Below, one piece after another: positions 3,755 to 63,434 of a stretch of DNA of 64,000 nucleotides. Below the pieces are notes generated by a model that ran no database searches, was not told where the DNA came from, and saw nothing but the letters and a program-made list of their open reading frames with translations. Origin of the DNA: a virus. A program made the position numbers and the translations under genes. Numbering within the stretch: the stretch's first letter is position 1; the number at the start of each line of letters is the position of its first letter. The DNA lies in the IMG/VR virus record IMGVR_UViG_3300048851_000098, positions 32,001-96,000 of that record. One strand, 5' to 3'.

Positions 3755-3836
3755 GCCGGGAAGGCCCCAATGGTGGGGCACCTGACTGTAAATCAGGCGT
3801 CTCTGACAACGGCAGGTTCGATCCCTGCTCCCGGCA
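3755..3836 (+). tRNA. trnY: tRNA-Tyr(GTA)
   Basis: CCTGA-CTGTAAA-TCAGG. Confidence 0.92.
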
Positions 3837-5610: not shown

Positions 5611-5985
5611 ATGGACAACCCGCGTCGAGATGAACTTGGCAATTACATCTTTCTGCCGCAAACCCGGTTCGATCCCGAACCTTGGGCGAGAGTTCTGCGC
5701 CGCGATCCATGCTCATATTGCGACGGCGCGGGCGGCACTGTAGATCACATCGTGCCGCTGGCTCATGGCGGCGAGAAGGCCGTTTCTGTCAACGGCACCG
5801 GCGCCTGCTCGACCTGTAACAGTCTGAGCCACCAGAAGTCCGACACGCCCCTCCTCCAATTCCTCCTCAAGCGAGCACAGCGGAGAGACGCCTACGAGCA
5901 CTACGTCAGATCCTCTCCGCAGATCACTCACAGATTCTTCACGGAGGAGCAGTTGGAACTTCTACGTCGAGTTGCAGAAAGCTAG
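5611..5985 (+). CDS. HNH endonuclease
   Basis: CSYC...TVDHIVPLAHGG...NGTGACSTCN. Confidence 0.9.
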   Translation: MDNPRRDELGNYIFLPQTRFDPEPWARVLRRDPCSYCDGAGGTVDHIVPLAHGGEKAVSVNGTGACSTCNSLSHQKSDTPLLQFLLKRAQRRDAYEHYVRSSPQITHRFFTEEQLELLRRVAES

Positions 5986-9339: not shown

Positions 9340-9448
9340 TGGCAATGACTAGACAGCGTACGAGTTGAACAGGGAAGCTGGCACGTCAGGCGTGTAGAGG
9401 TTGAGTCGGTACCAGGCTCGCCGTCCCTTGCGGCCCTTGTCATTGCCA
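9340..9448 (+). ncRNA. branched RNA closed by a perfect 10-bp helix, unassigned
   Basis: TGGCAATGAC/GTCATTGCCA; inner AGGGA/TCCCT and CACG-TCAGG-CGTG. Confidence 0.5.
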
Positions 9449-9468
9449 ATTCGTTTACCGCAGCACCT

Positions 9469-9542
9469 ACCCCGGTAGCTCAACTGGACAGAGCGCTGGT
9501 CTACGGAACCAGAGGTTTGGGGTTCGAATCCCTAGCGGGGTG
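9469..9542 (+). tRNA. trnR: tRNA-Arg(ACG)
   Basis: CTGGT-CTACGGA-ACCAG. Confidence 0.92.
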
Positions 9543-9552
9543 CTGTAACAAT

Positions 9553-9646
9553 GGGCCGGTAGCCAAGGTTAGGACAGGCCACTCCCCGGCAGTGGTAGCT
9601 GTCGGAAGAGAAGGAGTGAAAGCGGGTTCGAATCCCGTCCGGTCCA
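9553..9646 (+). ncRNA. tRNA-like RNA with Ala identity (G3-U70, A73) and the anticodon loop replaced by a 27-nt hairpin module
   Basis: Acceptor GGGCCGG/CCGGTCC-A; D arm GCC/GGC; stem ACTCC/GGAGT enclosing CCGGCAG-TGGTAG-CTGTCGG-AAGAGAA; T arm GCGGG-TTCGAAT-CCCGT. Confidence 0.75.
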
Positions 9647-9647
9647 T

Positions 9648-9677
9648 TTGACACAGACTATGATTCTTGTGTATAGT
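9648..9677 (+). promoter_or_regulatory. sigma70/SigA promoter with extended -10
   Basis: TTGACA-N18-TATAGT preceded by TGTG. Confidence 0.75.
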
Positions 9678-9791
9678 AGCTCTACCTTCGCAAAAGGTGC
9701 GTTACGAGTAGGTTCTGGAAATTTCTGCAAACCATCAACTGGTTGAGAAACGCCTAAAGTTGCATCGAAGTCAGAATAGATGCAGCTCCGC

Positions 9792-9862
9792 TGCGGATTG
9801 GTGGATTGGTACCACGCGAGGCTCATAACCTTGAGGGACGGGTTCGATTCCCGTATCCGCTA
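9792..9862 (+). tRNA. trnM: tRNA-Met(CAT); unpaired 1:72 suggests initiator-like, Ile2 not excluded
   Basis: CGAGG-CTCATAA-CCTTG; U1-U72 mismatch. Confidence 0.85.
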
Positions 9863-9940
9863 TGTGCGATAGCTGGCCGCGCATCTCTGAGTGTGCCTTT
9901 GGCATTTATCAGACAAGGGTCTTCGACTCCCAGCTAACTA

Positions 9941-10012
9941 GGGCGATTGGTGTAATCGGGAACACACTAGCTTTGCAAGCTAGAATTGGGGGTTCGACTC
10001 CCCCATTGTCCA
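9941..10012 (+). tRNA. trnA: tRNA-Ala(TGC)
   Basis: CTAGC-TTTGCAA-GCTAG; G3-U70; A73. Confidence 0.92.
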
Positions 10013-10107
10013 TGCCGAGCCGGATGTGATGGATTATCTTGGTAAATGGTGCGACCCACCTACCGAGTTCGAGTCTCGGGTATCCACCGCAATTGATTTG
10101 CTCGGCA
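10013..10107 (+). ncRNA. Y RNA (distal copy with a T-arm only)
   Basis: TGCCGAGC/GCTCGGCA ends; CGAGCCGGA-N9-TTATCT...ATTTGCTCG motif as in the three Ro60-adjacent RNAs; CCGAG-TTCGAGT-CTCGG. Confidence 0.75.
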
Positions 10108-10133
10108 ATCTAAATCCACAAAGGAGGCGAATC

Positions 10134-10169
10134 ATGCTGAAGCGCCTGCTTGTCCTTAGGACAAGCTAG
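10134..10169 (+). promoter_or_regulatory. putative leader peptide MLKRLLVLRTS
   Basis: Strong RBS AAGGAGG 10121-10127; ORF contains hairpin GCTTGTCC/GGACAAGC. Confidence 0.45.
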
Positions 10170-10238
10170 CCTCAGTCGAAGGGACGGATGAACCGTCTCT
10201 AGTGCCGGCTGGGGCGCCCCGAAAGGGGGTGAAACAGC

Positions 10239-10415
10239 ATGGCTAGTGGAACGCCCCATACGGCGAAGTCCACCACTACGAAGACGAACAAAAAACGTCT
10301 TCGCAAGGGCGGTCGTAACGAGCGAAAGTACGCGAGATATCGCGCTCGCGTCGGTAAGCCGAACGGCCCCGGTATGCCCGGTAATAAGTCGGGCAAGAAC
10401 AAGATCCATTCATAG
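10239..10415 (+). CDS. 58-aa highly basic protein (not in the ORF track)
   Basis: MASGTPHTAKSTTTKTNKKRLRKGGRNERKYARYRARVGKPNGPGMPGNKSGKNKIHS; RBS GGGGGTG; terminator follows. Confidence 0.6.
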   Translation: MASGTPHTAKSTTTKTNKKRLRKGGRNERKYARYRARVGKPNGPGMPGNKSGKNKIHS

Positions 10416-10447
10416 GGGGTGAGCTAATGTCTCCCCACAAGGCAACG

Positions 10448-10471
10448 GCCCCGCTTTCGAGTGGGGCTTTT
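10448..10471 (+). terminator. intrinsic terminator
   Basis: GCCCCGC-TTTCGA-GTGGGGC-TTTT. Confidence 0.75.
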
Positions 10472-10634
10472 GTCGTTCCCTAGAAGACAAGTACGAGCAT
10501 CAGAATTACTGCTGCCCAAAACGCAATAAGGAAAGCAGTAATAGTTACCAGCATCTCTGTCTCTCGTGTACGATTGTTCATCTTCGCGATTTTACACGAT
10601 TACCTTGCTATCAACTTCGCGCTAAGATAGCATC

Positions 10635-10997
10635 ATGCAAGAAGATCAAAACCCTGATCGGATCTACATCAGGGAGGCTGCGGAGATGCTGAATCGTCGC
10701 ATGCCCACACTGCGAAAGTGGGATCGCGATAGAGAACTTCCTACGCATCTCTGCCCAAGACGCGGTATTCGTGGTTGGCGATATTGGAGTCCTGAGCAGA
10801 TCGAAGGAATCCGGCAATGGCTTCGGGATACTGATAAACGTCCCGGAAAGAGTTTGCCGCATTACAATCCCACAGAAGAACAACTGAATAACGCAATCGC
10901 AGCAATGCGAAGACCACGATGGAGATTCGGAAAAGCCGGACCATCTGGTATTGTTTTCACAGAAGAAAAAATAGAAAAGGAAAACAATGGCGACTAA
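10635..10997 (+). CDS. MerR-type HTH DNA-binding protein
   Basis: IYIREAAEMLNRRMPTLRKWDR...P.R...GWRYWS; TAAGAT -10 six nt upstream (leaderless). Confidence 0.8.
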   Translation: MQEDQNPDRIYIREAAEMLNRRMPTLRKWDRDRELPTHLCPRRGIRGWRYWSPEQIEGIRQWLRDTDKRPGKSLPHYNPTEEQLNNAIAAMRRPRWRFGKAGPSGIVFTEEKIEKENNGD

Positions 10998-11725: not shown

Positions 11726-13075
11726 ATGGATATTGAGCGCGCTCTCATCAGCAAGATTATCTCGACTGGACAACTGGAAGAAGTAGTAAGTCGAGGCATT
11801 CGCTTCGACTTTTTTAGCGATCCAGAATGTCAAGATATGTTCAAGTATCTTGCCGGTCATGTTCGTAGATACAAGGTTGCTCCCTCTTCTGCTGCGGTGA
11901 AGGAAGCAAAGCCCGGTTTTGAGTATGTAATCGTTCAAGATCCGCTTAATTATTTGATTGACGAGTTTGTTGTCAAAGTCAAGCGACTCAAGGCGAATGA
12001 AATGCTCAGAGAGCTGGCAGTGATTGCTAGCGACAGAGAGAAGAGCCGCGATATCGAGTTGCACTTCATGGAAATCAGTCGCACGCTGGCGACCATGGTT
12101 CCCTCTATCGAAGTTCACAATTTCGCTAGAGATATGGAATCTCGTATTATCGATTACGAGAGAAAAGCAAAGGAAGGTGTTCCGCCTGGAATTCCTTTCG
12201 GTTTCCCGACACTTGATCGTTGGACTGGTGGCATTCAGTCGCACGAATTTGTGACGGTGATGGCCCCATCTGGTGTTGGCAAGTCGACAATGCTGATGAA
12301 GATGGCATTCAATGCGTGGATGGCCGGAAAGACTCCACTCGTTATTTCGCTTGAGATGGAGAAGCATGCCATTGCCCGTAAGTTCGATGCCATGTTCGCC
12401 GGCATCGACTACAACAAAATTAAACACCTTGAACTTCCTGAAGTACAACTTCGCCGTTGGCGTCAAAAATTGCAGGAAGTTGAAGGAAGAGGATGTGACA
12501 TTCCGATCATCGATTCGATTCGCGAATGCACTCCTGATCACGTATTTGCTGAGACTGTTCGGCACAGTCCCGACATTGTTTTCATCGACTACCTGAGCCT
12601 TATGCGGTCCTCGCGGCCCAACAGTAGTAGTTCGTCTCAGTGGCAGACCATCACTGAGATCACTCAGGACATGAAGCAGAACGCGCGTACTCTGAGAGTT
12701 CCGATGGTGGCCGCCGCGCAGACCAATCGCGAAGGCTTCAAGAGAGGCGTCGATCTCGAAAACGTAGGCCAGTCGATTTCTATCGTTTGGGATTCAGACA
12801 TCATCGTTGCGCTGTGGGCGACCGACGAGATGAAAGAAGCCAATCGCATTGATCTCAACCTGCTGAAGAATCGTGATGGTCGTCTTGGTCAACTCAGAGG
12901 CGTGTGGGATCACAAGCACGCCGACTATCGCGAGTGGAGAGATGGTGAAGAGCTGCGTCATTTCCAGCGCGAAGAGCAAGATCGTCAGGAAGATGAACTT
13001 GACAAGGCAATGGAAGTAGCCAAAGAAAAGGCCAAAGCTCAGATGGGAAACCCATTCGAAAAGTTTATGAGATGA
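11726..13075 (+). CDS. dnaB: DnaB-like replicative helicase
   Basis: APSGVGKST, ISLEM, FIDYL, AAAQTNRE, LLKNRDG. Confidence 0.95.
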   Translation: MDIERALISKIISTGQLEEVVSRGIRFDFFSDPECQDMFKYLAGHVRRYKVAPSSAAVKEAKPGFEYVIVQDPLNYLIDEFVVKVKRLKANEMLRELAVIASDREKSRDIELHFMEISRTLATMVPSIEVHNFARDMESRIIDYERKAKEGVPPGIPFGFPTLDRWTGGIQSHEFVTVMAPSGVGKSTMLMKMAFNAWMAGKTPLVISLEMEKHAIARKFDAMFAGIDYNKIKHLELPEVQLRRWRQKLQEVEGRGCDIPIIDSIRECTPDHVFAETVRHSPDIVFIDYLSLMRSSRPNSSSSSQWQTITEITQDMKQNARTLRVPMVAAAQTNREGFKRGVDLENVGQSISIVWDSDIIVALWATDEMKEANRIDLNLLKNRDGRLGQLRGVWDHKHADYREWRDGEELRHFQREEQDRQEDELDKAMEVAKEKAKAQMGNPFEKFMR

Positions 13076-28074: not shown

Positions 28075-30596
28075 GTCCACAACCACGCATTATCAGAACT
28101 AATGGTTCGAGAAATGGTGGTGCTCCCGTTGGCGAGGTAACGCCTGAAGAAGCGGCAGTTATTCGCTCTTCTGTCGGTGCGAGAGAACAAGCGCCTTCCA
28201 CGCGAGTCCAGTCGATTTTCTCGAACTGGCGCGAAGTAGCAGATCAGCTTGGCGATCCATTCGAAGTAGAAAAGATTCCTGTCTCAAAGCTTCGAGCGAT
28301 GCGCCGAGATCCGATGCTCGGCTTTGGTCTTTCGTTCACAAAGACCCCGCACGTACGGGCGAAGTGGACAATCAACGCGAAAGATAACAGAGGGCCAAAT
28401 CCTCAAGTTGCTGCGCATCTTGATCACGACTGGCGACGTATCCATGCCAGCTTCGTAATGCAATATTTGAACTGCCTTGAGTTTGGCTTTCAAGCTATTG
28501 CAAAACGTTTCGAGTTTCGCACTCCATCGGGCACATACATCGATAACACCAGCGAAAGCCCATCTGAAAGACCTATTTGGTCTGAAGGTGGTATTCAGCC
28601 AATCGCATGGAAGCCCTTCGTGGCTCTGCGACCAGAAGGCGTCGATCCGATTTGGGATAGATCTACTGGTGAGTTCTCTGGTATCGAGTACACCCCTTCT
28701 GGCGGCGGGAGAACTGGTGGAGGCGGGAGCGCCCCCGCTGGTACTGCCGCGCAGCAAACCTCCGGCGGCAGTGGCGGCACCAATAGAGAGCAGACCTACA
28801 AGATCGATCTGCCTCACTCTCTGTGGGTGACGAATGAAAAGGATGCGAACTTCGGTTCCGTCTTTGGATATCCACGTCTCGGATACGCATATCGTTATTG
28901 GTGGAGCTATTGGATGCGCTGGGCGATTGCTGATCGTGCATTCGAGCGCAAGGCTGATCCTTCTGTACTCGTGTATCACCCCGAAGGTGAGTTCCTTGAC
29001 GAGGACACAGGTCAAACTCTGACACACTCTGAGTACGCGCTTATGATTGGTGAGCGTATGCGCTCAGGTGGCGTTATCGCGATGCCTTCAGAAGTGTTTG
29101 AGAGCATCGATGGTCGCGGTACTATTCGTCAGTGGCAGATCGAGTTCACCAAAGATTCAACAAACTTCGATCCATTCGATAAGTCGTTCGAATATCTCGA
29201 TGTGCAGAAACTTCGTTCTCTGTTCATTCCTGAACAGGCATTCCTTGAAGGCAAGGGCGGCACTTCCTCTCGAAATGTTGCAGCCGAGATGGGTGATTCC
29301 TTTGTCGAATCACAGGCTGTACTCAACGCACAAATCGTAGAGACGATTAATCGTTGGATCATCCCACAATGGCTTGCGGTGAACTACCCCGAGTTTGTCA
29401 TGAATGGCGGCACTGCCGAGATCATGATGCAGGGATTCGGCGATGAAGATGTCACCTTCATGAATCAGCTCATCACGCTCATTGGTCAGCAAGAGAGCGG
29501 TATGAGAGAAATTCTGAAGATGGCTGATCTCAGAAAAATGCTCGAAGATCGCGGTGCTCCCATCGCAAACTTCGCCGAGCAGCAGCGTCGTGAGAGACAG
29601 TTGATCGAAGAGGCGCAAGCCGCTGCGGCCCCTGCTGTTGCGCCGGCACCAGGAAGACTTGGCGTGGTGCCTACCGCTACGGGATTCTCCTACGTAGCTC
29701 CGCGCGAGATCATCTACCTGTCTGAGACGGCGACGAGCTTCATCGACAATCTGCCTGACGCCCCACAGTACGAGGACAGATCAGTAAGACAGCTTGCGCG
29801 ACAGCTCTGGAATATCTATGCAGATCTGTATCGTGATGAATATCTCTCCGCTATTGACATCATTCTGAATGGTGACGATAACGTAGAAATGAGCGACTTC
29901 AAGGAACGCGCAAAGAGACTGCTCGAAAAGTGGACAGGCTCAGAACGCTGGGCAAGTGCGCTTGATAAGTCGATCTCTCTCATGACCAACCTCATGCGTC
30001 GTGCGGCCAGAATCGAGTTGACCCGAGTTGGTGAGGTCGGCGAAGTTTCTGACGAAGAGGTCGAGAGATGGTTGCGCGAGCACTTGGCTGAGATCGCTCC
30101 CAAGATCGCTGCTACTACTCGTGGCGAGGTAGAGAGCTTCCTCGCGGCCACCATGGAGTCTGGCGTTACCAATCGCGAAGAGCTTGCACAAGCTGCGCGT
30201 GAACACTTCTCTGATTTCCCACAGTGGAAAGCTGATCGCCTCGTGCGCACAGAGGTCCGCGACATCTACAACGCGGCCACCCTGCTTGCCGCAGAGGCTC
30301 ACGGAATCAGACGTGTACAGGCTGTAGACGCTCAGGTCACGGCCAACACCGACGAGGAGTGCGTCCACCGCGACGGCAGAATCTTCGCGATCAGAGATGC
30401 CTTCGAACAGCGCGAGCATCCGAACGGAACGCTCGGCTGGCGCATGGTTCCTGCTGAGTTGTCTATTGAACGCCGGGACGTTGATGGTGCAGAGTTTGAC
30501 GAGAGACTGAAGATTCTCACGCTCTCGAATGACTTGCCAGAAGAGACAGAAAACAGAATTCTCAAATCAGTGGTGGATGTGATGCTTAGTGCTTAG
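28071..30596 (+). CDS. portal protein fused to a MuF-like minor head domain
   Basis: Follows TerL; DUF935-like region; C-terminal RLVRTEVRDIYNAA...CVHRDG...HPNG. Confidence 0.8.
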   Translation: MSPQPRIIRTNGSRNGGAPVGEVTPEEAAVIRSSVGAREQAPSTRVQSIFSNWREVADQLGDPFEVEKIPVSKLRAMRRDPMLGFGLSFTKTPHVRAKWTINAKDNRGPNPQVAAHLDHDWRRIHASFVMQYLNCLEFGFQAIAKRFEFRTPSGTYIDNTSESPSERPIWSEGGIQPIAWKPFVALRPEGVDPIWDRSTGEFSGIEYTPSGGGRTGGGGSAPAGTAAQQTSGGSGGTNREQTYKIDLPHSLWVTNEKDANFGSVFGYPRLGYAYRYWWSYWMRWAIADRAFERKADPSVLVYHPEGEFLDEDTGQTLTHSEYALMIGERMRSGGVIAMPSEVFESIDGRGTIRQWQIEFTKDSTNFDPFDKSFEYLDVQKLRSLFIPEQAFLEGKGGTSSRNVAAEMGDSFVESQAVLNAQIVETINRWIIPQWLAVNYPEFVMNGGTAEIMMQGFGDEDVTFMNQLITLIGQQESGMREILKMADLRKMLEDRGAPIANFAEQQRRERQLIEEAQAAAAPAVAPAPGRLGVVPTATGFSYVAPREIIYLSETATSFIDNLPDAPQYEDRSVRQLARQLWNIYADLYRDEYLSAIDIILNGDDNVEMSDFKERAKRLLEKWTGSERWASALDKSISLMTNLMRRAARIELTRVGEVGEVSDEEVERWLREHLAEIAPKIAATTRGEVESFLAATMESGVTNREELAQAAREHFSDFPQWKADRLVRTEVRDIYNAATLLAAEAHGIRRVQAVDAQVTANTDEECVHRDGRIFAIRDAFEQREHPNGTLGWRMVPAELSIERRDVDGAEFDERLKILTLSNDLPEETENRILKSVVDVMLSA

Positions 30597-47021: not shown

Positions 47022-48704
47022 TTAGATGCTCTCCTGAATGAACTGCGCCATGATCTGTGGTGCGCCAGAGTCGAACCCGACGACATCCAACATGCCTGGA
47101 TCTCTTGGGTTAGCGATGCTGTATTCGGTAGCTGTGTAGGCAGCAGCAATCAGCTTTGCTCTGATACCGCTTTCCTTGCGATAGAACTCCAAAGCTTGCG
47201 ATGCGTGAATCCCACCATTCCACGACTCGTTATCGGTGTGGATCTCGAAAACGTCGTATTCCTTGCCGTTCTCACGGGCGTACATGATTGGCAGTGCGCA
47301 ATCTGTAGCACCCATAAACGGAGACATCGCTCGCATCGCGCGATCAACATCATCGAGACGCTGACGGGGGCTGAGTGCCATCGGTGTCAAGCCAGGGTAG
47401 ATCTCTCTACCGGAGTTCCGACTGCGGTAATAACTGTCCCCTCCGCTGGTAAACGCAACCACGTCGTAGGGATCGCCCGTCTTCATGCTGGCGAGCGACA
47501 TCGCACCGGCCGCCTCTGCGGCCACGAACCCTTCGATGCCGGCGACGTACCTCGGGTACGCGCCCCACATCGAACCGGAGATATCGAGCGCAATCAGACG
47601 ACGTGCGCCAGTCGGCTCCAAATTGTCGAACGCGAGATAGAACGCCTCATCGAGGGCGTCGAGAATCTGAGGCACAGGTGTCCACGTCTGCCCGCGCCGG
47701 CCCACCCCCGCCGCATAGGTCTTTGAGGCCAGCAGCACGTTGGCAGGGTGGATTCGCGCAGCGCTGATTACCTCCGCGTCAGTGAGCGTTCTGCGGATGA
47801 TGTCCGTCTCTCTGCTTGTGCCAGTGATCACACCATCGCGTGTCATGTTGGCGAGATTGCGAATCATCGCCGTCATGGGCATTTGTGCATTCAGAAGTGC
47901 AGACCAGACCTCGGGCTGATTTCTGTGCTCAGTCAGAATCGCCTCGCGTGGCAGACGGAATCTTTCGATCAGTCTGGCAGTAGCTCTCGGCGTTCTCGCT
48001 CTGAGAGCCTTGCCGGCAGCCTGCACGATCTCCGGGAGATCTCTTTTCTTTCCCTTGTATCTGTTGGTCGCCCACTGGAAGAGCATCTTCATCTCTTCCA
48101 TATCTTCGTGAACAACTCTCTCGCGATCCTCTGGATTTGGATGTGCGAGACGCAACAGATCCTCGTGCGACCATCCGTCGCGCTGTGGATACTTCACGAG
48201 CTGGTAGGCGAGCTTCGGAATTGGCTTCTTCAGATACCAATTCGCCACGGCGTTTCTCATACCACGGCCCCAGCCGGCGAACTGCTCGCGGAACGTAACG
48301 AATTGGAACAAATGTGTGCCGATACGGCAGACATTGTTCACGTTCTCGAATGCGTACTGGCGTGTTGCGTCATCACCAAGCGCAGAGGCCATGGCGAGAG
48401 CGAACACGGCTTGATCATTCTTCGGTGCGCGAGCGTCCATCGAGATTTCAACGATGGTGTCCACGGTTCTGATTCCGTCAAGTTTGCAACACTCGATTAC
48501 GCACTCGGCGTTTTCACGAGTCAGCTTGCGCTCACCCGTGTAGTAGGTCCCGCCCTCGGAACCGAGAATGAGGAATCGCCGCAGACGAGCAAAGGGATCG
48601 ATCTCATAGACGAAACCACCAGCGTTGTTCTCGACCTGATCTTGACCAGGGATCGGTTCGCTCTGTGGTGTTTCTTTTGCTCCGTAATTTCTCAGATACG
48701 ACAT
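47022..48704 (-). CDS. rsr: Ro60/Rsr TROVE-domain RNA-binding protein with a vWA domain
   Basis: NNAGGFVY, RLRRFLILGSEGGTYY, VCRIGTHLF, YQLVKY.QRDGWSH.DLLRLAHP, MPMTAMIRNL, MIDAS ALDISGSM, TDC, TDNE, MLDVVGFD. Confidence 0.97.
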   Translation of the reverse strand: MSYLRNYGAKETPQSEPIPGQDQVENNAGGFVYEIDPFARLRRFLILGSEGGTYYTGERKLTRENAECVIECCKLDGIRTVDTIVEISMDARAPKNDQAVFALAMASALGDDATRQYAFENVNNVCRIGTHLFQFVTFREQFAGWGRGMRNAVANWYLKKPIPKLAYQLVKYPQRDGWSHEDLLRLAHPNPEDRERVVHEDMEEMKMLFQWATNRYKGKKRDLPEIVQAAGKALRARTPRATARLIERFRLPREAILTEHRNQPEVWSALLNAQMPMTAMIRNLANMTRDGVITGTSRETDIIRRTLTDAEVISAARIHPANVLLASKTYAAGVGRRGQTWTPVPQILDALDEAFYLAFDNLEPTGARRLIALDISGSMWGAYPRYVAGIEGFVAAEAAGAMSLASMKTGDPYDVVAFTSGGDSYYRSRNSGREIYPGLTPMALSPRQRLDDVDRAMRAMSPFMGATDCALPIMYARENGKEYDVFEIHTDNESWNGGIHASQALEFYRKESGIRAKLIAAAYTATEYSIANPRDPGMLDVVGFDSGAPQIMAQFIQESI

Positions 48705-48762
48705 TTCGATCCCTTCGCATATGTGATTTCTTCAGCGCCCCTAAGAGGCTACGAACCTCTAT

Positions 48763-48862
48763 CTGTTATCGGAAAGCTCAGCCGGTGTGCATCGCCTGCG
48801 CGTGGCCGCGTTAGAAGCACGACCAGCGAGAGGGACCGGCAGCCTATGACACTTTCCAACAG
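48763..48862 (-). ncRNA. structured RNA presenting an isolated anticodon-like stem-loop (CUUCUAA)
   Basis: CTGTT-GGAAAG/CTTTCC..AACAG, GCCGGT/ACCGGC, TGGTCGTG-CTTCTAA-CGCGGCCA (48803-48825). Confidence 0.5.
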
Positions 48863-48888
48863 GACTCGTACGAGAGTCGGGGCAAGAA

Positions 48889-49025
48889 AGGCTACGAGCA
48901 AATTGTTTGGATTCGATATAGGCGCTCTAACCAGGCTGAGCTACACGCCTTTTGAGCGTGACGGGATTCGAACCCGCGACCTCCCTCTTATGCGGAGATA
49001 ATCGATTCCATCCGGCTCGTAGCCT
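48889..49025 (-). ncRNA. YrlA-type Y RNA with a permuted tRNA-like domain
   Basis: AGGCTACGAGC/GCTCGTAGCCT ends; T arm (GGGTTCGAATCCC), closed acceptor (CACGC/GCGTG), then D arm (TAGCTCAGCCTGGTTAGAGC); adjacent to Ro60. Confidence 0.9.
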
Positions 49026-49033
49026 TCAAGAGA

Positions 49034-49106
49034 TCTCGCGAACAAATAGTTGGTGATGGGTATTGTCTGTTCGATAGAGATAACCCAAAACCTCCGGCTC
49101 GCGAGA
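49034..49106 (-). ncRNA. minimal 73-nt Y RNA without a tRNA module
   Basis: TCTCGCGAGC/GTTCGCGAGA ends; CGAGCCGGA-N9-TTATCT...ATTTGTTCG. Confidence 0.8.
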
Positions 49107-49128
49107 GCAGTTATTCAGTTGTAAGGGG

Positions 49129-49270
49129 CTGGTCGAACAAATTAGTTGAAAAGCGAGATTTTTTACCACTGCTCTACCAATTGAGCTACCGACGCTCTTC
49201 GAGCCTCGGGCAGGAATCGAACCTGCAACCTTTGGTCCCTGAGATAACGCTTATCGTCCGGCTCGACCAG
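49129..49270 (-). ncRNA. second YrlA-type Y RNA
   Basis: CTGGTCGAGC/GTTCGACCAG ends; T arm GCAGG-TTCGATT-CCTGC, closed acceptor, D arm TAGCTCAATTGGTAGAGC. Confidence 0.9.
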
Positions 49271-49276
49271 TTGTAA

Positions 49277-49441
49277 CTATTTTCTCCTTGACCCTCGCCA
49301 ATCAGCTCTTCGTGTCTTTCTATTATGAGCCCATTTTCTTGCTGCTCTTCTAGCAGTGGCCCACATAAATCTACGCTGCTTTTCACTTCTGAATTTACCG
49401 CCGCCATGTTTTCTCTGGCGAGAGCGAGAAGCCATTTTCAT
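49277..49441 (-). CDS. 54-aa Arg-rich small protein (not in the ORF track)
   Basis: MKMASRSRQRKHGGGKFRSEKQRRFMWATARRAARKWAHNRKTRRADWRGSRRK; GGGAGA RBS. Confidence 0.6.
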   Translation of the reverse strand: MKMASRSRQRKHGGGKFRSEKQRRFMWATARRAARKWAHNRKTRRADWRGSRRK

Positions 49442-63107: not shown

Positions 63108-63434
63108 TCAAGCCTCATCGTCCATGGGATATCTGTACTGTTCGAGCATTTGCGCCAGGGTGATACATGTTTCGTTTGGACCAGCGCGATTGAAGCTTAT
63201 TACTTCTTCTGCTGACGAATTTGTATTTGTATAGCTAGTACCGGTTTCGTCTGCGCGGGCGATCCGGGCCTCGCCGGTTGCCAGGTCACGGGAAACCCCT
63301 TCTTCCGTGATGGTGTATTCGCTCGCAGCCTTCACCGCTTGCTCCCGCGTCATCACATACGACACGGGAGCATCTACGACCTCTGACCACTCGATATATG
63401 CGTCATCACCAAGTTTCAGGAATGCACGACTCAT
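63108..63434 (-). CDS. conserved phage hypothetical protein
   Basis: YIEWSEVVDAP...FNRAGPNE. Confidence 0.6.
   Translation of the reverse strand: MSRAFLKLGDDAYIEWSEVVDAPVSYVMTREQAVKAASEYTITEEGVSRDLATGEARIARADETGTSYTNTNSSAEEVISFNRAGPNETCITLAQMLEQYRYPMDDEA

Follow-up and report, generated by a model that had tools for sequence, protein, structure and literature searches.

A probable fourth Y RNA joined to the end of a phage tRNA array, far from Ro60 and on the opposite strand

The genome-wide search of Chen et al. (2014) reported only those Y RNAs that lie within 4 kb of Ro60; nearly all of the best matches were on the Ro60 strand, and matches that overlapped tandem tRNA genes were discarded (PMC4201824). 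The same study describes YrlB of Mycobacterium smegmatis, a Ro60-bound RNA that has a T-arm, and a Ro-contact motif, GGUCCGA/GNCGAA (PMC4201824). Among phages, in vitro work has demonstrated binding and a PNPase complex for the Ro60 of Thermus phage phiLo and its RNAs Yrl1 and Yrl2, which were sought and found directly upstream of Ro60, with no tRNA-array copy described (PMC12135203). A precedent for a noncoding RNA embedded in tRNA arrays is GOLLD, which is cited as lying inside the arrays of Mycobacterium (Morgado et al. 2020, as cited in PMC9569102). The full-text literature on Y RNAs together with tRNA arrays or clusters and phages yielded no description of array-embedded phage Y RNAs. Noncoding RNAs that are freed by tRNA-processing enzymes include the tRNA-pre-miRNA of murine gammaherpesvirus 68 (tRNase Z), MALAT1/mascRNA, plant tRNA-snoRNA and the Escherichia coli 3'ETS-leuZ sRNA. 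Here we analyze an element of 95 nucleotides (nt), called Y4 (for fourth Y RNA), on the plus strand of a 64,000-nt viral DNA stretch; this stretch, the window, comprises bases 32001 to 96000 of the 124,171-bp IMG/VR record IMGVR_UViG_3300048851_000098, which is 85% complete. Y4 directly follows the last gene of a tRNA array, in a genome that encodes Ro60 and three further Y RNAs elsewhere.

We think it probable that Y4 is a genuine Y RNA of the short type, made from the tRNA-array transcript by way of the tRNA 3' cut and bound by Ro60, in which the predicted Ro60-binding helix closes a reduced tRNA-like module made of one hairpin and one canonical T-arm. As a molecule it is an ordinary kind of Y RNA; the novelty lies in where it sits: joined to a tRNA, a long way from Ro60, and on the opposite strand. 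Its closest characterised relative is M. smegmatis YrlB. Like YrlB (M. smegmatis and Salmonella; PMC4201824), Y4 is short, its ends form a predicted Ro60-binding helix and it has no full tRNA-like domain; like the M. smegmatis RNA in particular it keeps a T-arm, and like YrlB it coexists with longer YrlA-type RNAs in a Ro60-encoding genome and is presumably processed from a longer transcript. The YrlB gene, however, has YrlA on one side and rsr on the other, all on one strand, whereas Y4 is separated from Ro60 by 37-39 kb, is on the opposite strand and is fused to a tRNA; the helix motif of Y4 reads GCCGGA...GGUUAUC, compared with GNCGAA in YrlB. The bulged-C helix and 5' strand of Y4 resemble the Ro-contact motif.

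The comparison extends to more distant systems. With YrlA (RF02553), Y4 shares the logic of the Ro60-binding stem and a module of tRNA origin whose T-loop is canonical, but not the D-arm and closed acceptor hairpin of the permuted tRNA-like domain; the T-arm lies immediately ahead of the stem's 3' strand, and the stem therefore replaces the acceptor stem, not the anticodon stem. We rejected Y4 as a YrlA in its own right (it lacks the D-arm and the closed acceptor hairpin and has no RF02553 match at E ≤ 10; two of its siblings reach 42-43 bits). Metazoan Y RNAs and nematode sbRNAs (RF00019, RF01656) resemble Y4 in the end helix with a bulged C, the GGUCCGA-like 5' strand and the unpaired UUAUC by the upper stem, but they are transcribed by Pol III from genes of their own and have no tRNA module, unlike Y4 in its bacterial-type polycistronic tRNA array. 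Like the tRNA-processed noncoding RNAs, Y4 is structured, abuts a tRNA and would gain one end from a tRNA cut; none of those RNAs, nor GOLLD, is a Y RNA or serves Ro60, and the likeness is one of mechanism, not of family. As in phiLo, a phage-encoded Ro60 is accompanied by several phage-encoded Y-RNA-like partners.

The exact pattern CGAGCCGGA-N9-TTATCT occurs at 10016 (+), 48996 (-), 49078 (-) and 49242 (-), and these four sites are the only ones in the whole record, where a reversed control pattern gives 0 matches. With up to three mismatches allowed, the window contains 6 matches, compared with 1.84 ± 1.26 in shuffled sequences (6 reached in 0 of 100 shuffles). The minus-strand sites belong to three Y RNAs directly upstream of the Ro60 open reading frame (ORF). 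At the other end of Y4 the 3' strand ATTTGCTCG occupies 10096-10104, and the 3' closure ATTTGYTCG is common to all four copies in the window; a prior reading of the DNA that saw only its letters (the sequence-only reading) had claimed the exact consensus for Y4, and the matches on both strands of the helix bear this out. In order, Y4 reads UGCCGAGC-C-GGA-UGUGAUGGA-UUAUC...AUCCACCGCA-AUUGA-UUU-GCUCGGCA. The outer stem pairs 10013-10020 with 10100-10107, and beyond the bulged C the segment 10022-10024 pairs with 10097-10099 (G-U, G-U and A-U). This bulged-C geometry recurs in the three Ro60-adjacent Y RNAs, whose motif is identical, and in the consensus of the covariance model described below. 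The N9 helix differs among the four window copies, with matching changes carried by the 3' strands.

Y4 is 36.9 kb from the near end of the Ro60 ORF and 38.8 kb from the nearest Ro60-adjacent Y RNA, on the opposite strand, so that the earlier estimate of about 39 kb was roughly right. At 36.9 kb and on the opposite strand it falls outside the 4-kb reporting limit of the published survey, which is a search filter and not a property of the RNA (PMC4201824); that limit, together with the discarding of tandem-tRNA overlaps, supports the claim that a synteny-based search would miss such an RNA.

To obtain a family model, we scanned IMG/VR for the 5' motif and kept loci in which a 3' strand closes the helix. 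Eleven short phage Y RNAs, with Y4 left out, were aligned (alignment A1), and a covariance model with 19 pairs (R1) was derived from them. R1 matches Y4 at 10014-10107 with 46.0 bits (E 1.5e-9), covering model positions 1-63 of 63 with a 38-nt insert; this is the second-best match both in the window and in the whole record, after the training sibling at 49034-49106. Standard pairs are formed at 18 of the 19 model pairs (the exception is A10029-C10087), and the bulged C is kept. Across 25 distinct family members, in an alignment that was fitted to the model and a family that was ascertained by the 5' motif, both helices covary: 86.8% of cells are paired compared with 66.5% in shuffles (and about 40% in slid registers), both sides change in 16 of 19 pairs, and the observed values are reached in 0 of 500 shuffles. 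For the N9 helix, all nine pairs covary across the family. The claim that the element is a fourth Y RNA is thus supported by the motif on both strands, by the R1 score, by helix covariation and by the presence of Ro60 in the genome. One further R1 match in the window, at 63258-63328 (+), is weak (17.1 bits, E 0.045, several non-standard pairs) and is probably due to chance. Within the family, alignment pair 5/148 is unpaired in 8 of 25 members; in many phage Y RNAs (for example at the IMG/VR loci L002, L011, L020 and L026) the conserved 5' CGAGC faces a 3' GCCCG, giving a recurrent A-C mismatch in the Ro-binding stem, unlike the window copies, which have GCUCG or GUUCG at that position.

The 95-nt sequence of Y4 folds into a closed structure (-34.3 kcal/mol, z -2.4; Table 1). 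The observation that nothing but a T-arm and a small second hairpin is retained holds, with the caveat, weighed below, that the T-arm conformer is not the one of minimum free energy (MFE). Among 93 distinct closed Y RNAs from all fetched loci, 10 are short Y RNAs that bear a T-loop, and seven of these 10, Y4 included, have it 37-44 nt from the 3' end, where it immediately precedes the 3' strand of the inner helix. A hairpin followed by a T-arm in the same position as in Y4 is found in L034b, L107b, L114, L115, L118 and L122. The T-arm reading of Y4 is supported by this shared position in other short Y RNAs, and because the T-loop position recurs among them, Y4 appears to belong to a recurrent T-arm-only subclass.

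Table 1. Coordinates of Y4, its parts and associated features in the window
Feature	Position	Strand	Basis or remarks
Promoter-like TTGACA-18-TATAGT, 11/12	9648-9677	+	Nearest upstream of Y4
tRNA-Met(CAT), presumed same transcription unit as tRNA-Ala	9792-9862	+	ARAGORN, Rfam
tRNA-Ala(TGC), last member of the array	9941-10012	+	ARAGORN; Rfam 64.6 bits; G3:U70; no encoded CCA
Y4, short T-arm-only Y RNA, 95 nt (candidate)	10013-10107	+	Family motif, model R1, closed fold
Ro60-binding helix (predicted), 5' strand	10013-10020 (outer stem), C10021 (bulged), 10022-10024 (GGA)	+	Pairs with 10097-10107 (UUU + GCUCGGCA)
Inner (N9) helix, 5' strand	10025-10033	+	Pairs with 10083-10091; 8/9 pairs standard; A10029-C10087 mismatch
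Unpaired conserved UUAUC	10034-10038	+	Invariant in alignment A1
Small hairpin GGUG-CGACC-CACC	10048-10060	+	MFE extends the same hairpin to 10038-10067
T-arm CCGAG/UUCGAGU/CUCGG, canonical T-loop, conserved positions kept	10063-10079	+	Sequence reading
Y4 3' strand	10083-10107	+	Inner helix 10083-10091, loop AUUGA, UUU 10097-10099, outer stem 10100-10107
First terminator-like hairpin downstream of Y4	10447-10468	+	
Ro60 (Rsr), 560 aa	47022-48704	-	Pfam TROVE 8.8e-48, vWA_Ro60 7.2e-45
Y RNA, YrlA-like (T-arm, closed acceptor hairpin, D-arm)	48887-49027	-	Rfam YrlA 42.9 bits, below gathering score; motif; closure
Short Y RNA without tRNA module	49034-49106	-	R1 58.3 bits; Rfam sbRNA ceN72-3 30.4 bits
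Y RNA, YrlA-like	49129-49270	-	Rfam YrlA 41.7 bits; motif; closure

The array that precedes Y4 comprises 26-27 tRNA genes on the plus strand between 2632 and 10012 (ARAGORN and Rfam; the tRNA at 3755-3836 (+), found by Rfam at 47.7 bits, is absent from the ARAGORN list). None of 27 array tRNAs encodes CCA, and at least 23 of the 27 have a T directly 3' of the gene, often as TATG, compared with about one quarter expected from base composition; this array-wide pattern fits a 3'-processing signature of RNase Z-type maturation. The T at 10013, one of those counted, is the first base of Y4: the discriminator A10012 of tRNA-Ala abuts Y4 with a gap of 0 nt, exactly as had been read from the letters alone. 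For Bacillus subtilis, a U just past the discriminator has been described as stimulating RNase Z. In general, RNase Z cuts CCA-less pre-tRNAs right 3' of the discriminator, and the streptococcal tRNA-Ala that has been tested had a trailer beginning with U (PMC8549757).

These observations suggest a route by which Y4 might be made. No sigma-70-like site was found on the plus strand between 9678 and 10013, and Y4 would be the last RNA of a tRNA-array transcript, most likely of a unit that starts from the promoter-like sequence at 9648-9677 and includes tRNA-Met and tRNA-Ala. In a 195-nt precursor the tRNA-Ala cloverleaf and the Y4 fold form side by side and independently, and therefore a single cut at 10012|10013 would complete the tRNA and yield the Y RNA. 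The 5' end at U10013 would come from the endonucleolytic cut that matures the CCA-less tRNA-Ala after its discriminator (the RNase Z pathway), and in the RNA so released the first base would pair with the last. The 3' end would need a second event, cleavage or trimming up to the stem in the A/U-rich single-stranded stretch past A10107. Once free, the RNA would bind the phage Ro60 as its three siblings would, and part of the Y RNA supply would then be tied to expression of the tRNA array and not to that of the Ro60 operon. Three pointers (the zero-nt junction, the CCA-less and mostly U-followed array, and the recurrence of tRNA-to-Y junctions elsewhere) make it plausible that tRNA 3' processing generates the 5' end. 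In one soil metatranscriptome run, two contigs identical to the phage cover 9685-9961 (277 nt) and 12382-12597 at a depth of 2.6; neither reaches 10013, contigs of this kind cannot show RNA ends, and DNA carry-over is possible. That Y4 is left uncovered does not speak against its expression. A DNA sequencing run probably represents the source sample and is not independent. The contig at 9685-9961 starts 8 nt past the -10 hexamer and ends inside tRNA-Ala, and its start may, as a weak hint, mark a transcription start inside the array.

We evaluated how widely this layout recurs using a junction pattern (a T-loop 12-32 nt before the Y motif), which matched 6 IMG/VR loci and 64 metagenome loci. 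About 40 of the 64 metagenome loci have a called tRNA 0-15 nt upstream of the Y RNA, although the gap distribution is conditioned, because the pattern itself required proximity, which is a point against the case. The gap is 0 or -1 at four loci (L083, L092, L116 and L118). In L067-L071 the Y RNA lies 2-3 nt past tRNA-Leu(CAG) in arrays of 19-29 tRNAs, in L069 and L108 it lies 3-7 nt ahead of tRNA-Thr, and in L003 and L130 it is set between two tRNA-Ala(TGC) genes with gaps of 8-11 nt; R1 scores array Y RNAs of the L067-L071 and L108 type at 32-41 bits, with inserts of 33-39 nt. Two loci, L115 and L118, are of the hairpin-plus-T-arm type seen in Y4. The next tRNA follows 2-9 nt past the Y RNA in L092, L115, L108, L130, L003 and the genome G006. 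The last of these (IMGVR_UViG_3300021404_000006, which contains L069) is a complete phage of 118,922 bp with direct terminal repeats; its Ro60 shares 40% identity with that of the window and has four Y motifs upstream (71267-71691, -), and a fifth Y RNA, at 5712 (+), is placed between tRNA-Leu(CAG) (2 nt) and tRNA-Thr(TGT) (3 nt), 65 kb from the Ro60-linked copies and on the other strand, which is the split design of the window. In five other genomes (G001-G005) the Y RNAs, tRNAs and Ro60 all lie within about 2-3 kb. Because the tRNA-to-Y layout recurs in dozens of phage contigs, the RNAs are probably excised by the tRNA-processing machinery.

The sequence-only reading had also proposed a check of whether related phages keep array Y RNAs only when they encode Ro60. 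A partial answer comes from the viral records with the motif that are large enough (14-100% complete): all six encode a TROVE protein. Within the fetched flanks of a few kb, tblastn found a Ro60-like ORF at 24 of 68 loci (64 metagenome loci and four viral fragments). We make no claim that Y4 is orthologous to the array copies in G006, L067 and L070, because the likeness in the N9 and the 3' loop (GCAAU...) is no better than to one of its own siblings, Y3.

The case for Y4 as an array-derived Y RNA is carried by its family membership in sequence and predicted structure, by the junction, by the array-wide processing signature and by the recurrence in other phages. Several points weigh against it. 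Transcription, the cleavage enzyme, Ro60 binding and function are, for Y4, inferred from the DNA. The 46-bit R1 score is not fully independent, because the training set was picked by the same 5' motif and includes one sibling from the window. The fold z-score is a mere -2.4; in ViennaRNA predictions the T-arm conformer lies 1.0 kcal/mol above the MFE structure, which lengthens the first hairpin instead, and the family-consensus helix with the T-arm lies 3 kcal/mol above it. No Rfam family covers Y4 in a search of 9400-10700 at E ≤ 10, which shows only that the curated models miss this short type. Searches for close relatives were negative: a strict Y4-like pattern (5' motif, GTTCGA and TTTGYTCG) gave 0 matches in metagenome contigs, blastn of 9700-10400 and 48650-49400 against INPHARED phages matched only tRNA-Met and the tRNA-like module, and an IMG/VR search with the neighbouring DnaB-like helicase found no relative of the phage, so that conservation of the Y4 locus is not shown by relatives in these three collections. 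As for the cleavage route, a PolyA_pol/CCA-adding enzyme was not found in the 85%-complete phage record, although the host enzyme would serve, and a stem that begins at the cleavage site could hinder RNase Z.

We consider it unlikely that the element works in cis, as an unreleased part of the tRNA operon. Its helix would then stay on the precursor or on the downstream structured RNA or mRNA (10108-10480), where it might bring Ro60, and with it a 3'-5' exonuclease, to the transcript, or else shield the 3' end as a cap or control the short ORFs that lie downstream. Such a role in cis would account for the lack of a terminator immediately past Y4 (the nearest terminator-like hairpin downstream is the one in Table 1) and for the unusual structure of the 373 nt that follow on the plus strand (-161.3 kcal/mol compared with -127.6 ± 6.0 in shuffles, z -5.6, reached in 0 of 100), and Ro60 of Deinococcus radiodurans, Y-RNA-free or Y-RNA-bound, cooperates with exonucleases in acting on structured RNAs (PMC4201824). 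Located 13 nt past Y4, a strong AAAGGAGG-N6-ATG opens an 11-codon ORF (10135-10170), which is followed by an ORF for 58 very basic amino acids (10239-10415) with no PHROG match; the downstream ORFs are without a family match, however, and 10108-10480 may be a structured RNA instead of a coding region. In G006 and the five loci named with it above, moreover, the equivalent Y RNA is followed by a tRNA within 2-9 nt; RNase P would free the Y RNA ahead of that tRNA, and a free RNA would therefore be the general design. An inactive relic seems to us improbable; it would be a copied Y RNA, or one fused to part of a tRNA, that recombination between T-arm sequences had placed in the array. A single copy far from Ro60, a reduced tRNA module, one A-C mismatch in the inner helix and the lack of relatives that could reveal purifying selection at the locus are what such a relic might look like, but its 18 of 19 intact model pairs, bulged C, UUAUC and complete set of conserved T-loop positions are not, and the N9 helix is unlike those of all three siblings and yet has a 3' strand that matches its own 5' strand. 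The junction, moreover, obeys the array's rule of a discriminator followed by U, the same split layout is found in a phage whose Ro60 is merely 40% identical, and the T-arm-only geometry is that of a recurrent subclass.

That Y4 is no Y RNA at all, being instead a degenerate tRNA, part of a two-piece tmRNA or a short protein-coding ORF (10026-10169), strikes us as very improbable. ARAGORN makes a permuted tmRNA call (tmRNA*) over 9553-10204 in which the tag peptide is read across Y4, a canonical T-arm is present, and a 47-codon ORF with a GTG start overlaps the element. That call, however, covers four independently called tRNAs, and its predicted tag, GATHLPSSSLGYPPQLICSAI, is without the usual tmRNA tag ending; tmRNA tags usually end like ...ALAA. 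No tRNA or tmRNA family is found by Rfam over 10013-10107 at E ≤ 10, and the motif shared with three Ro60-adjacent Y RNAs and the R1 score would be left unexplained. We regard these readings as effectively refuted; for a tmRNA there is the permuted call only, and no ARAGORN or Rfam tRNA call lies over Y4.

Some neighbouring features merit description in their own right. The spacer between tRNA-Met and tRNA-Ala (9863-9940, +) can be closed by seven acceptor-like base pairs (TAGCTGG...CCAGCTA), contains GGGTCTTCGACTCCC, which resembles a degenerate T-arm, is called as a tRNA by neither ARAGORN nor Rfam, and may be a tRNA relic or mimic. The sequence CCGGA...GGUUAUC is common to the phage Y RNAs and to the nematode sbRNA and metazoan Y RNA consensus; given the 30.4-bit ceN72-3 match of the short Ro60-adjacent Y RNA and the invariance of UUAUC in A1, the motif is conserved from phage to animal Y RNAs. 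The tRNA-like module of a Ro60-adjacent Y RNA shows 77-83% identity (blastn, INPHARED) to unannotated stretches of deposited phages, namely Mycobacterium phages Sparky (28877-28974), Farewell and Phabba (93858-93942) and Xanthomonas phages Tabio, Sopo and Tenjo, and these stretches may be YrlA-type RNAs or tRNA-like elements.

A broader interpretation can be offered as a tentative one, which we hold to be possible although doubtful at present: phage tRNA operons would carry Y RNAs as a regular and conserved component, which RNase Z and RNase P would cut out at the flanking tRNAs, and how much Ro60 ribonucleoprotein (RNP) is assembled, and when, would follow the production of phage tRNAs. RNAs of the T-arm-only subclass, in which the stem is stacked on the T-arm like an acceptor/T minihelix, may then direct Ro60 and a partner exonuclease to the surveillance of phage pre-tRNAs, or to their defence against host tRNA-targeting nucleases.

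What Y4 points to, on the strength of sequence, is a matter of genomic organisation and not a new kind of molecule. Y RNAs have been found almost entirely by searches beside Ro60; Y4 and its parallels show that phages also place Y RNA genes flush to tRNA ends in arrays, and many phage and metagenome contigs carry Y RNAs linked to tRNAs in this way. The Y RNA inventories of Ro60-encoding phages, and perhaps those of bacteria too, are therefore likely to be incomplete. The layout also offers a testable route of biogenesis, through a precursor whose cleavage positions for RNase Z and RNase P are defined, and it links the long-noted tRNA mimicry of bacterial Y RNAs to co-expression with tRNAs, which bears on the role of the Ro60-Y RNA particle in infection.

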